Assembly: GCA_049297775.1 (NCBI GenBank)
Contig: JBAQUX010000017.1
Coordinates: 21,337 to 85,336 of the forward strand
Source: Minisyncoccia bacterium
Lineage (GTDB): Bacteria > Patescibacteriota > Minisyncoccia > Phycocordibacterales > UBA2100
Length of the DNA stretch: 64,000 nt
Direction of reading: 5' to 3'
The notes under the pieces: model-generated
The model's database searches: none
The model's input: the letters and a program-made list of their open reading frames with translations, nothing else
Told to the model about the DNA's origin: nothing
Part shown: piece by piece, positions 1,937-52,897 of the stretch
Numbering within the stretch: the stretch's first letter is position 1
How the letters are laid out: every line of letters begins with the position of its first letter
Made by a program: the position numbers and the translations under genes

Positions 1937-2012
1937 TGGAGCCGCCTGTCAGATTTGAACTGACGACCTACTCATTACAAGTGAGTTGCTCTACCAACTG
2001 AGCTAAGGCGGC
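1937..2012 (-). tRNA. tRNA-Thr (anticodon TGT), CCA encoded
   Basis: Reverse complement folds as cloverleaf: acceptor GCCGCCT/AGGCGGC, D arm GCTC..GAGC, anticodon stem ACTCA/TGAGT loop CTTGTAA, T arm GTCAG TTCAAAT CTGAC, 3' TCCA. Confidence 0.85.
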
Positions 2013-10688: not shown

Positions 10689-11045
10689 TTACGCTACTTT
10701 TTCAACGATAACTTTCATAAATGGCTGGCGATGACCATTCTTTTTGAAGTATCTACTTTTTTGGCGATATCTGATAACAACAACCTTCTTTGCGCGCCCT
10801 TCTACAGCAACCTTTCCTGTAACCTTTACACCTGAGAGGTATGGAGTACCTACTTTTTGAGTTGTCCCGTCGTCCACGAGGAGCACCTTATCAAAAGTGA
10901 CAGTACCACCCTCTTCTGCGCCGAAAATAGATTCAACAGTAATTGTAGTACCTTCATGCACAATGTATTGCTTGCCACCCGTCTCAACAATAGCCATTGT
11001 AGTTCCGAGCTTTTTTGTTTCTTTTTTAGCTGTTTTTTCTGACAT
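10689..11045 (-). CDS. rplU: 50S ribosomal protein L21 with basic N-terminal extension
   Basis: MAIVETGGKQYIVHEGTTI matches the L21 N-terminus; a K-rich extension precedes it, so the start is uncertain (alternative ATG 10997; ORF open to 11081). Confidence 0.75.
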   Translation of the reverse strand: MSEKTAKKETKKLGTTMAIVETGGKQYIVHEGTTITVESIFGAEEGGTVTFDKVLLVDDGTTQKVGTPYLSGVKVTGKVAVEGRAKKVVVIRYRQKSRYFKKNGHRQPFMKVIVEKVA

Positions 11046-23692: not shown

Positions 23693-24352
23693 TTAATCTG
23701 ATTTCTTTTTATCCTTGTCTGGGGCTTTTGCTGCTGCGGCTGCGGCTGCTGCAGCTTGAGCTTCAGCAACTGCAGGAATTACATCTGGAGCAAGGTTAGA
23801 TACAACTTCCTCAACTGCCTCTGATGCGAGTGCAATGATTTCATCCTGAGAAAGCTCAGCTTCAGCACTTGGTGGAAGTGGAAGGTCAGCAACAGTAATG
23901 TGATCACCCATCTTTGCAAGCTTAGCAAGATCTACATCAACATGTGACGGAAGCTCATTTGGCAAAACTTCAATAGTTATTTCGTGAAGCACTTTAACAA
24001 TAACCGCTCCTGATTTTTCAGCAGCTGACATACCGATAAAATGAAGTGGGATTGTCGCCGTGAGCTTTTTAGACTTGTCGAAAGCATAAAAGTCTACGTG
24101 GAGCGCGTCACCTGAAAGTGGATGTACCTGCACGTCATGGACGAGAACATCCATTGAAGTACCGAGGCCAGCAATTGATATAATTGTTGACTCACCAGCT
24201 TTCTTCCAGACCTTAGTAAATTCTTTTGTATTAAGAGTTATAGATTTCGCAGGAGTCTGTGGTCCATACACAACAGCCGGGACCATTCCTTGGTCTCGTA
24301 ATTGTGTTACTGACACACCATCTGTGCGCTCTGTTGCGGTTACGGTAAGCAT
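23693..24352 (-). CDS. rplY: 50S ribosomal protein L25 / general stress protein Ctc, with Ala/Lys-rich C-terminal tail
   Basis: L25 N-terminal domain (VTQLRDQGMVPAVVYG), Ctc-type C-terminal domain, tail AAAAAAAAKAPDKDKKKSD. Confidence 0.82.
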   Translation of the reverse strand: MLTVTATERTDGVSVTQLRDQGMVPAVVYGPQTPAKSITLNTKEFTKVWKKAGESTIISIAGLGTSMDVLVHDVQVHPLSGDALHVDFYAFDKSKKLTATIPLHFIGMSAAEKSGAVIVKVLHEITIEVLPNELPSHVDVDLAKLAKMGDHITVADLPLPPSAEAELSQDEIIALASEAVEEVVSNLAPDVIPAVAEAQAAAAAAAAAKAPDKDKKKSD

Positions 24353-24419
24353 GGGCGCTAGTATACCTATTTTTCCCTCCTCTGCAACATGCGACGCATG
24401 CTAACGTAAGAAAACACTA

Positions 24420-24447
24420 TTGACGCATACCTACACTACTATATACT
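24420..24447 (+). promoter_or_regulatory. Sigma-70-like promoter (TTGACG - 16 nt - TATACT)
   Basis: Near-consensus -35 and -10 hexamers about 130 nt upstream of the 24590 start. Confidence 0.5.
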
Positions 24448-24468
24448 CACTCTATGAAACAGTTTTTT

Positions 24469-24554
24469 GGTGCACGTCGTACAACAACCTCAGCCCTCGG
24501 CTAAGTTGTTTGTGTGCACCTCTCATATGAACACCCTAGCCGGACAGGCTGAGG
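24469..24554 (+). ncRNA. Structured 5' leader with alternative pairings (possible riboswitch or attenuator)
   Basis: Long imperfect hairpin ggtgcacgtcgtacaacaac[..]gttgtttgtgtgcacc encloses cctcagcc. That segment can pair locally with ggct or with ggctgagg 45 nt downstream, so the two structures are mutually exclusive. GGAGG SD follows at 24580-24584. Confidence 0.35.
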
Positions 24555-24589
24555 TGGTCTTTGCCTGACGGGAGCATATGGAGGCGAGC

Positions 24590-25060
24590 ATGCACAACAT
24601 GCGGAAAAGTGCGTTTGTGAAAGTGAGCGGTGACCTAGTTTTACATCGAAAGGTGCTGAAATGGGTACGTCGACTTGCTGGGCAGTTTCATGTTGTAATT
24701 TGCACCGGCGGAGGTACTCAGATTAACGAGGCCCTCATAGCTGCAGGTTATGAATTACGGAAACATGGCCCGCTCGGACGCGAACTCGGTACATTCGAGG
24801 AGCGTCAACTTGCACGAAACGTACTTGAGATGAACAAGGCGCAACTTGAAGATCGGCTTGCGATGGAGAACATCCATGCGCATGTCGTGATTCCAGTTTT
24901 GGAAGTCGGAGGTGTGCTCTGTCATGTGAATGGTGATACATTCCTTGAAACAGCATATATTGGATTTGATTTATTGTTCGTGGTAACTACAAAGGAACGC
25001 GAACAAAATAAGTCAGATACATTTAGACATCTTCCGAAAGTCCGAGTGCGTTCGTTCTAA
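24590..25060 (+). CDS. Short amino-acid-kinase-fold protein (UMP kinase / carbamate-kinase-like motifs)
   Basis: VKVSGDL and VVICTGGGTQI resemble the N-terminal AAK nucleotide/phosphate loops; GDTFLETAYIGFDLLFVVT resembles the AAK C-terminal motif; only about 156 aa. Start taken at the second ATG with GGAGG 5 nt upstream (ORF open from 24578). Confidence 0.55.
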   Translation: MHNMRKSAFVKVSGDLVLHRKVLKWVRRLAGQFHVVICTGGGTQINEALIAAGYELRKHGPLGRELGTFEERQLARNVLEMNKAQLEDRLAMENIHAHVVIPVLEVGGVLCHVNGDTFLETAYIGFDLLFVVTTKEREQNKSDTFRHLPKVRVRSF

Positions 25061-25072
25061 CCCCATACGACG

Positions 25073-25101
25073 ATACCCTGACGCTTCACACGTCAGGGTA
25101 T
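25073..25101 (+). terminator. Intrinsic terminator (ataccctgacg..cgtcagggtat then T-rich) after the 24590..25060 gene
   Basis: 11-bp perfect stem, T-rich 3' flank. Confidence 0.55.
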
Positions 25102-25154
25102 TCTTATTCATTATATTTTAAAAAAGAAAAATATATTACTTACTAACAAAAAAT

Positions 25155-25179
25155 CTCCCAGAGGGAGATTTTTTGAGAA
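25155..25179. terminator. Bidirectional terminator hairpin (aaaaatctccc aga gggagattttttg)
   Basis: 7-bp stem flanked by A-run and T-run; ends immediately 3' of the minus-strand micro-ORF at 25182. Confidence 0.5.
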
Positions 25180-25181
25180 GC

Positions 25182-25253
25182 TTATTTCTTCTTCTTAGCT
25201 GCTGCCTTTTTCTTAGCAGGAGCCTTTTTTGCTACCTTTTTCTTTGCTGCCAT
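25182..25253 (-). CDS. 23-codon Lys/Ala-rich micro-ORF (MAAKKKVAKKAPAKKKAAAKKKK)
   Basis: ATG..TAA open frame; own bidirectional terminator 3 nt downstream; AT-rich promoter-like region upstream; coding status unproven. Confidence 0.3.
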   Translation of the reverse strand: MAAKKKVAKKAPAKKKAAAKKKK

Positions 25254-49527: not shown

Positions 49528-49598
49528 TGCTAGATCGTCTAATGGTAGGACAGCGCCCTCTGAAGGCGTTTATCTTGGTTCGAGTCCAAGTCTGGCAG
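49528..49598 (+). tRNA. tRNA-Gln (anticodon CTG), CCA not encoded
   Basis: Acceptor TGCTAGA/TCTGGCA with U1-A72, D arm GTCT..GGAC, anticodon stem GCGCC/GGCGT with loop CTCTGAA, T arm CTTGG TTCGAGT CCAAG, discriminator G. Confidence 0.75.
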
Positions 49599-52665: not shown

Positions 52666-52897
52666 AATTTTAGTCCCTATATGATAAAATAACCAGTACG
52701 CCCTGGAAGGGGTGGCACCTAACCCTATTCATCTCACGATGAGCAGGTATGGTGCACAGTCGCAAAAAGCATAGAAAACCCGTCATTGGGGTGCTTTTTG
52801 CGCCGTACAGGGAAACTTGTATGAGGGAGAAATCCCTACCTTCAGTGGCGGGTTTTTTGAGTGCCACGTTTTGCTTATCAATTTTCATTACAAAAAC

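Follow-up and report, generated by a model that had tools for sequence, protein, structure and literature searches.

What does the structured leader of a short amino-acid-kinase-fold gene sense, and how would it pass the signal on? This leader lies in a stretch of 64,000 nucleotides (nt) from a Minisyncoccia bacterium (contig JBAQUX010000017.1; the whole stretch is called the window here), where it occupies a 225-nt gap with the divergent L25 (ctc) gene on one side and the kinase-fold gene on the other. An earlier note, made from the sequence alone, had read it as a promoter followed by mutually exclusive helices of the riboswitch or attenuator type. Our proposal is ribosome-mediated (leader-peptide) attenuation, in which the leader reports how much charged tRNA-Arg is available, and we give this reading a probability of roughly 0.78. 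That this is a real structured leader with competing helices does not depend on folding statistics: the z-score of the minimum free energy (MFE) fold of the whole leader is only -2.28 and 3 of 200 shuffles fold equally well, and it is because of the comparative evidence, which is stronger than this modest score, that the observation goes beyond chance. Three features had been missed in the earlier reading, namely a short open reading frame (ORF) with arginine codons, an inner hairpin and a further hairpin, 4:5, close to the gene (Table 1).

The comparison draws on 141 loci with 114 non-redundant upstream regions; 140 loci encoding homologues were gathered from genomes, metagenomes and exact-protein look-ups, and by its source names the protein family belongs to Parcubacteria, Paceibacterota and the wider Patescibacteria. 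Among these, 29 non-redundant leaders share one design: an ATG that abuts the promoter, two to four tandem Arg codons, four segments with the alternative pairings 1:2, 2:3 and 3:4, a stop codon that falls within segment 2 or past it, and a 3:4 hairpin with a U-rich tail that is canonical in the distant clades and weak in the window. Beyond the 29 there are duplicates, one copy truncated at its 5' end and one with ATA in place of ATG. The L024 leader, which starts ~230 nt upstream of its gene, is otherwise typical but reads ATA at the place of the leader ATG of its close relative L014; this may be a non-canonical start, a defective leader or a sequencing error.

The ATG-started ORF is open over 16-29 codons in the 29 leaders, and the run of Arg codons in it, present in every one, consists of two codons in 16 leaders, three in 11 and four in 2. 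Each of the six possible Arg codons occurs (CGT 36, CGA 14, CGC 7, AGA 7, AGG 7, CGG 2), with runs such as CGU-CGU, CGA-CGA-CGA, AGG-AGA-AGG and CGG-CGU-CGA-AGG. Upstream of the run the peptide varies in length (7-10 amino acids, aa) and in sequence, and after it there is partial conservation as RR(R)-T/A/N-x-S; examples from distant loci are MLSMTHNARRTASFEAV, MQSAISNIQRRRTDSFEAV, MKIKSLKLSIRRRDSNQNLRLVCVV, MNIKQTVQISIRRRNSNNLRLFVSV and MEHTILKIMRRRRNSSQCLRLFDSVQKLK. The synonymous switching between CGN and AGR codons, together with the variable N-terminal peptide, indicates that it is the amino-acid meaning of the Arg codons that is conserved, rather than an RNA motif or a specific arrest peptide. 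Of the 114 upstream regions, 35 have in the sense direction an ORF of 12-32 codons that starts with ATG and contains two adjacent Arg codons; in the reverse complement the number is 12. On both strands of the window (128 kilobases, kb), the combination of promoter, ATG and small ORF with two adjacent Arg codons has only two matches, the second of which, judged to be due to chance, falls within a 575-aa ORF of the other strand. A translatable ORF with tandem, synonymously varying Arg codons points to a translating ribosome as the sensor and not to a ligand-binding aptamer. This part of the proposal is well supported by comparison and we hold it with high confidence.

The near-consensus promoter described previously is present, with 10 of 12 consensus matches in a scan. 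All ten leaders of the window clade keep TTGNNN-16-TA(T/C)A(C/T)T, then 6-7 nt, then ATG, and most distant leaders have a -10-like hexamer 6-10 nt upstream of the ATG, found by automated scan or by eye. A motif resembling a Shine-Dalgarno (SD) sequence is absent upstream of the leader ATG in 28 of the 29 leaders. As the window ATG stands 6 nt past the -10 box and has no SD, the leader transcript is probably leaderless. The same promoter-to-ATG arrangement occurs at no fewer than 6 of the 33 long ORFs of the window, L25 included: the L25 gene (24352-24400) and the starts at 11045, 23600, 35052, 37295 and 46596, all on the minus strand, have TTGNNN-16/17-TANNNT 5-8 nt before the ATG, and five of these six gene starts lack an SD. 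This pattern of start sites suggests that leaderless mRNAs are common in this organism.

The long hairpin that had been described is formed by GGUGCACGUCGUACAACAAC and GUUGUUUGUGUGCACC, has a local fold of -22.2 kcal/mol and encloses CCUCAGCC, and the alternative pairings claimed for CCUCAGCC are likewise found, either with the local partner GGCU (24499-502) or with the distal GGCUGAGG (24547-54). The CCUCAGCC:GGCUGAGG pairing is the one present in the MFE structure of the whole leader. The distal partner does not lie just before the SD as had been stated, 25 nt separating its end from GGAGG. Helix energies are -22.2 kcal/mol for 1:2, -18.2 for 2:3 and -12.8 to -13.3 for 3:4. The Arg codons of the window fall inside the 5' arm of 1:2 and its stop codon inside the GGCUAAG of segment 2, and such a placement of codons and stop is that of the trp, his and leu attenuators. 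Across the family, segment 1 starts near the last Arg codon in most leaders (-9 to +13 nt by automated estimate), and in each of the 28 scorable leaders the stop codon is found inside segment 2 or further downstream. When the window RNA was truncated at 24556, which leaves the RNA that is present when the polymerase has just made segment 4, a stalled-ribosome mask at either Arg codon gave the 2:3 stem and no 3:4, and a mask at the stop codon allowed the 3:4 hairpin to form. Masked folds of the full distant leaders switch clearly (L032, L036, L037, L043, L044, L050 and L133 among those inspected), a stall giving a long 2:3 antiterminator and termination of the leader ORF giving the 3:4 hairpin.

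The leader is conserved as a unit with the kinase-fold gene. In nine non-identical relatives, whose proteins are 64-91% identical to that of the window, the leaders align over their full length including the promoter. Their nucleotide identity to the window leader is 0.60-0.92, compared with 0.63-0.87 for the whole coding sequence and with a saturated 0.31-0.43 at third codon positions in all comparisons but that with L053, the closest relative, where it is 0.73; the leader is thus conserved about as well as the coding sequence or better, and far more than the third codon positions. L001 and L002 were inspected for the point where similarity sets in, and in both it is exactly the -35 box; the leader accompanies the kinase-fold gene into loci with unrelated upstream genes. 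Because the start of conservation and the synteny both follow that gene, the leader is a plus-strand feature of the kinase-fold gene and not of L25. Leaders of distant loci have almost no sequence similarity to that of the window and yet show the same design; nhmmer with the window leader matched only two close relatives among the first 52 loci.

The earlier note had proposed covariation in homologous leaders as a check, with an absence of compensatory changes as the outcome that would count against the structure; compensatory changes are present. In the alignment of distant clades (A3), P2, the inner hairpin of 2:3, and the terminator stem together have seven pairs changed on both sides (for example UA:7/AU:6, GC:8/CG:4 and AU:9/GC:4), and by its position and the shared GUUUGU/ACGAAC blocks the P2 of the window can plausibly be equated with the covarying distant-clade hairpin. 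Two pairs in the outer stem of 1:2, UA:5/CG:2 and GC:6/AU:2, are compensatory in the alignment of the window clade (A2). The long-range pairing of segment 1 with segment 4 reaches 93% and includes one compensatory pair (CG:5/UA:4); this complementarity is automatic if segment 1 resembles segment 3 and segment 2 resembles segment 4. The best covariation-supported helix of the window-clade leader is 4:5, which RNAalifold also predicts, with 98.2% of cells paired, four pairs changed on both sides and none of 500 shuffles as good. The pairing segments themselves differ by clade with their complementarity kept, as in CUCAGCC/GGCUGAG, GCCUCAA/UUGAGGC and GGUCUCAAG/CUUGAGAUC. The comparison thus shows the ORF, the tandem Arg codons, the placement of these codons relative to the helices and the alternative helices themselves.

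From these features we infer a course of events in which transcription would start at or next to the A of the leader ATG (24454) and a ribosome would translate the leaderless 16-codon ORF. With Arg-tRNA plentiful, the ribosome would reach the UAA at 24502-04 and cover segment 2; segment 3 would then pair with segment 4 (24532-56), GUCUUUG would follow, and transcription would stop or the message stay off. With Arg-tRNA scarce, the ribosome would stall on CGU CGU and cover segment 1, so that the 2:3 antiterminator (24498-24542) could form, 3:4 would be blocked and the kinase-fold gene expressed.

The output is most likely intrinsic termination, since most relatives have canonical terminators. 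A 3:4 hairpin whose 9-nt tail has 4 or more U is present in 28 of the 29 leaders, the automated search having failed for L058, and the tails of distant leaders, such as UUUUUGAUG, UUUUUGUUC and UUUUGUUCU, have 5-7 U in 9 nt. We note that several distant leaders (L032 at about 2900-2975, L004, L036, L037, L043 and L044) carry a second three-strand module past the first terminator, for example GGAUGCGU..ACGCAUCC..GAUGCGUUCUUUU, and a conserved G(U/C)UCUUU(C/G)A directly upstream of the SD; from examination by eye and MFE, the second module may be a second attenuation stage.

A number of results weigh against attenuation of the classical kind, above all in the window itself. Both the translation of the ORF and the point where transcription starts are predictions from sequence. 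The 3:4 hairpin of the window is interrupted by a C.A mismatch, its U tract is poor (GUCUUUGCC), and a terminator scan did not call it. The ribosome-free equilibrium MFE is the nested 1:4 plus 2:3 fold (-39.6 kcal/mol, versus -35.5 for 1:2 plus 3:4), so the basal state would depend on folding kinetics, and with a stall mask on the full window leader the MFE retains 3:4 and lacks 2:3. In the window clade the 2:3 helix, with 90% of cells paired over 10 leaders, has no variation and, being invariant, gains no support from covariation. The classical attenuator model does not provide for the strongly covarying 4:5 helix, which competes with 3:4 and can form only when transcription has passed the putative termination point. 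A covariance model built from 13 distant-clade leaders (R1) misses the window leader with its filters at default or off and matched only generic terminators, and the place of the window clade in the wider family would therefore rest on synteny, shared design and short sequence blocks. As to the gene, the regulated protein is at most a putative enzyme of the arginine pathway with its ATP-binding lobe mostly missing, and no argC homologue was found in the 64-kb window by tblastn.

Some of these points would be met if the sensor were identical, with stalling on Arg codons, but the signal acted on translation in the window clade, after the manner of ermC: the SD would be hidden by segment 3 or by the P2 loop unless 2:3 forms, and the 4:5 helix would act as a scaffold that places segment 3 beside the SD. 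This is the main rival for the window clade, and we consider it unlikely, though worth serious thought. The weak U tracts of the window-clade 3:4 hairpins and the strength of the covariation in 4:5 are in keeping with it; RNAalifold closes 4:5 with segment 3 CUC against GAGG of the SD (CG:10, UA:8, CG:8), and the complementarity between CCUCUCAUAUG (24519-29) and CAUAUGGAGG (24575-84) gives, in the window, a loop-to-SD duplex of -19.5 kcal/mol (z -3.6). However, the other nine leaders show no significant duplex of this kind (z -1.5 to +0.3), the helix between segment 3 and the SD lacks covariation and slid controls pair nearly as well (75% versus 87.5%), and in forced-state and ribosome-masked calculations the ensemble accessibility of the SD had no consistent difference (means: stall 0.27, stop 0.35, free 0.29). 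The canonical terminators of the distant relatives also favour transcriptional attenuation. Another possibility is that a free-arginine sensor operates with reversed logic, a nascent-peptide arrest element stalling the ribosome at high arginine as do the fungal arginine attenuator peptide, TnaC and SpeFL. The upstream peptide does contain Arg, and RR(R)-T/A/N-x-S is partly conserved past the run, but segment 1 codes for those residues, so that RNA pairing constrains them, whereas the would-be tunnel residues N-terminal to the run vary in length (7-10 aa) and sequence. As a stall on the Arg codons promotes antiterminator formation, such an element would have high arginine switch on a gene that, from its fold and neighbours, looks biosynthetic, and we regard this reading as very improbable.

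The earlier suggestion of riboswitch or attenuator control can now be divided. Its attenuator part stands, with mutually exclusive conserved helices in the order 1:2, 2:3 and 3:4; its riboswitch part is not supported, given the lack of an Rfam match to the leader, the clade-specific helix sequences and the Arg-codon ORF. A small ligand that selects among the helices, with the short ORF incidental, would account for mutually exclusive helices and a highly conserved leader upstream of a metabolic-looking gene. However, the Rfam search that the earlier note had called for turned up no known riboswitch class: at the gathering score nothing relevant to the leader was matched in the whole window or in 20 homologous loci, and at E<=10 the region 24300-24700 gave only a spurious microRNA match (16 bits versus a threshold of 100). 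Helix sequences are swapped wholesale between clades, and a conserved unpaired core was not seen by inspection, no formal test having been made. A metabolite-binding riboswitch would also leave unexplained a start codon fixed 6-9 nt past the -10 box, an ORF open in 29 lineages and the synonymous CGN/AGR changes, and its probability is very low. A T-box leader was considered as well and rejected, as the same Rfam searches of the window, the leader region and the 20 homologous loci gave no T-box match. The position of the element in the 225-nt gap leaves one further reading, that it is either an autoregulatory leader of the ribosomal-protein kind for the divergent L25 gene or a small RNA in its own right. 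This is the least credible of all. The element follows the kinase-fold gene and, in L001 and L002, its conservation starts at the plus-strand -35 box; L25 has a promoter-like TTGCAG-16-TATACT of its own 7 nt before the ATG, which leaves no room for a leader; and, apart from the attenuator hairpin itself, no terminator stands between the element and the kinase-fold gene. The minus-strand, L25-leader version was rejected, as conservation and synteny track the plus-strand gene.

The gene under this proposed control can be linked to arginine only provisionally. Pfam AA_kinase matches its ORF weakly (E=0.03), and the family has the invariant motifs KxSG, GGGTQIN, GPLGRE and CHVNGD. The AlphaFold model (pLDDT 92) finds its best fold matches in the PDB in yeast N-acetylglutamate kinase (NAGK), NAGS and LysZ, with TM-scores normalised by query of about 0.6-0.7, and when PDB chains were searched with a sequence profile of the family, the similarity to NAGK was only marginal (E=0.31). 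In the NAGK alignment KxSG, GGG and NGD of the family stand opposite KIGG, HGGG and NAD of the kinase, which we take to be the N-lobe motifs of NAGK. At ~155 aa, compared with 250-300 aa for full-size kinases, the protein appears to be without most of the ATP-binding C-lobe. The family is widespread in Parcubacteria and is sometimes paired with argC: the gene lies directly 3' of argC in L003 and L064 (TIGR01850, 300 bits versus a cutoff of 233.6), and argC-like genes adjoin it in L040 and L130. An Arg leader was looked for upstream of argC itself in L003 and L130 and not found. Induction on shortage of Arg-tRNA would fit an ArgB-like role. We tentatively suggest, as a possibility that we hold to be rather less than even, that this orphan half-size protein (~155 aa) has a function induced by arginine starvation, perhaps as a minimal N-acetylglutamate-kinase-like enzyme, and that an arginine or ornithine route so far unrecognised goes together with reliance on coupled transcription-translation with leaderless leader peptides. 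Were this true, there would be an arginine/ornithine route in bacteria usually thought to be without amino-acid biosynthesis.

Table 1. Features of the leader and its flanking genes (window positions; segment functions are those of the proposed mechanism)
Feature	Positions	Strand	Details
L25/Ctc gene	23693-24352	-	divergent from the leader; start at 24352
Sigma-70-type promoter	24420-24447	+	-35 TTGACG (24420-24425), 16-nt spacer, -10 TATACT (24442-24447); 10/12
Leader ORF MKQFFGARRTTTSALG*	24454-24504	+	16 codons + TAA (24502-04); ATG 6 nt past -10 box, no SD
Proposed sensing codons, CGU CGU	24475-24480	+	two consecutive Arg codons; 2-4 Arg codons here in 29/29 leaders
Hairpin 1:2	24469-24488 / 24505-20		GGUGCACGUCGUACAACAAC x GUUGUUUGUGUGCACC
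Segment 1	24469-24495	+	5' arm of hairpin 1:2; contains the Arg codons; CCUCAGCC at 24488-95
Segment 2	24498-24520	+	GGCUAAG (24499-505, with stop UAA 24502-04) + UUGUUUGUGUGCACC; partner segment 1 or 3
Inner hairpin P2, UGUUUGUGUG / CAUAUGAACA	24507-24533	+	arms 24507-16 and 24524-33; CU-rich loop CACCUCU; apical part of 2:3 antiterminator
Segment 3	24524-24542	+	CAUAUGAACA + CCCUAGCCG (CCCUAGCC(G)); partner segment 2 (antiterminator) or 4
3:4 terminator-like hairpin, CACCCUAGCC-GGACA-GGCUGAGGUG	24532-24565	+	stem-loop 24532-56, then U-poor tail GUCUUUGCC
Segment 4	24546-56	+	GGCUGAGGUG, then GUCUUUGCC
4:5 hairpin	24540-24571	+	CCG-CAGGC-GAG x CUU-GCCUG-CGG (24540-53 with 24559-71)
SD of kinase-fold gene, GGAGG	24580-24584	+	read from the sequence; 5 nt upstream of ATG 24590
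Regulated gene, ~155-aa truncated amino-acid-kinase fold	24590-25060	+	other in-frame ATGs at 24578 and 24599

A terminator-like hairpin at 25072-25102 stands directly 3' of the stop codon of the kinase-fold gene, which suggests that this gene is a one-gene transcription unit. Between it and a GH3 hydrolase gene there is a candidate gene on the minus strand, a 23-codon ORF (25182-25253) encoding MAAKKKVAKKAPAKKKAAAKKKK, with a hairpin of GC stem and T run 3' of it on that strand at about 25150-25175. Elsewhere in the window, Rfam matches a LOOT RNA (RF03000) at 52716-52837 (+) over the full length of the model, with 74.3 bits versus a gathering score of 46.4, and two tRNA genes, at 1940-2012 (-) with 74.8 bits and at 49528-49598 (+) with 59.1 bits. 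Two of the homologous loci without an Arg leader, L006 (about 2840-2990) and L016, have other upstream structures instead, which in L006 include a ~25-nt perfect inverted repeat, CCAATACCAGCCGCGCCTGACACCAC ... GTGGTGTCAGGCGCGGCTGGTATT, around a terminator-like hairpin. In L044 a glmS ribozyme (2487-2676, -; 56.9 bits) lies on the opposite strand ~90 nt upstream of the Arg leader, and in L015 a tmRNA gene (1189-1555, -) lies ~500 nt upstream of the leader.

If confirmed, the proposal would define a cis-regulatory RNA element in uncultivated, genome-reduced bacteria, give indirect evidence that transcription is coupled with leaderless translation in these bacteria, and provide a functional lead, arginine limitation, for a conserved and uncharacterised family of mini-kinases. 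It also carries a caution: where alternative helices are conserved ahead of a metabolic gene, one should look for a leader ORF before calling them a riboswitch.

The leader appears to work like the classical leader-peptide attenuators, of which trpL, hisL, leuL, thrL, pheL and ivbL/ilvL of Escherichia coli and Salmonella are examples and for some of which Rfam contains leader families. It shares with them a short ORF in the leader in which codons for the sensed amino acid stand in tandem, four segments pairing 1:2, 2:3 and 3:4, a 3:4 hairpin with a U tract (canonical here in the distant relatives), regulatory codons in or just before segment 1 and the masking of segment 2 by a terminating ribosome. 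It differs from them in that arginine would be sensed, in that the ORF is apparently leaderless and not led by an SD, in its Parcubacteria/Patescibacteria lineage, in having no sequence or Rfam similarity to them and, in the window clade, in its weak U tract and covarying 4:5 helix. In the translational attenuation of ermC and cat, antibiotic-dependent stalling in a leader ORF remodels downstream hairpins. That remodelling is a possible model for the window clade, with segment 3 or the P2 loop masking the SD; unlike our leader, those systems sense antibiotic-dependent stalling and not an amino acid, and sequestration of the SD is inconsistently supported here.

Leader-peptide attenuation as such belongs to the textbooks; our literature search, however, found no bacterial arginine leader-peptide attenuator of a biosynthesis-like gene and no report of an attenuator in Patescibacteria. 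A survey from 2010, in which the ermC leader is mentioned and arginine is not, knew leader-peptide systems only from Proteobacteria, Actinobacteria and its own Firmicutes His leader (PMC2965389). These His leader peptides, found upstream of hisS/hisZ paralogues by comparative analysis of premature terminators, resemble our leader as leader-peptide attenuators outside Proteobacteria and Actinobacteria (PMC2965389), and differ from it in the amino acid sensed, the phylum and the target genes. In the speF leader of Salmonella, orf34 contains two consecutive Arg codons, at which ribosome pausing under low arginine selects an alternative mRNA structure (PMC6386406). The adjacent pair of Arg codons in an upstream ORF and, on our proposal, the choice of structure by pausing are common to both; however, orf34 has 34 codons in a long leader and acts through Rho-dependent termination, unfolding of the ribosome-binding site and RNase G sensitivity in the control of polyamine synthesis (PMC6386406), and it has neither the 1:2/2:3/3:4 intrinsic-terminator design nor homology to our leader. 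In mycobacteria, leaderless short ORFs with polycysteine tracts are described as Cys-responsive attenuators (bioRxiv 10.1101/834739). The sensed amino acid there is Cys and not Arg and the phylum is another; as in the arginine leader proposed here, a leaderless short first cistron carries consecutive codons for one amino acid, whose supply tunes the genes downstream (10.1101/834739).

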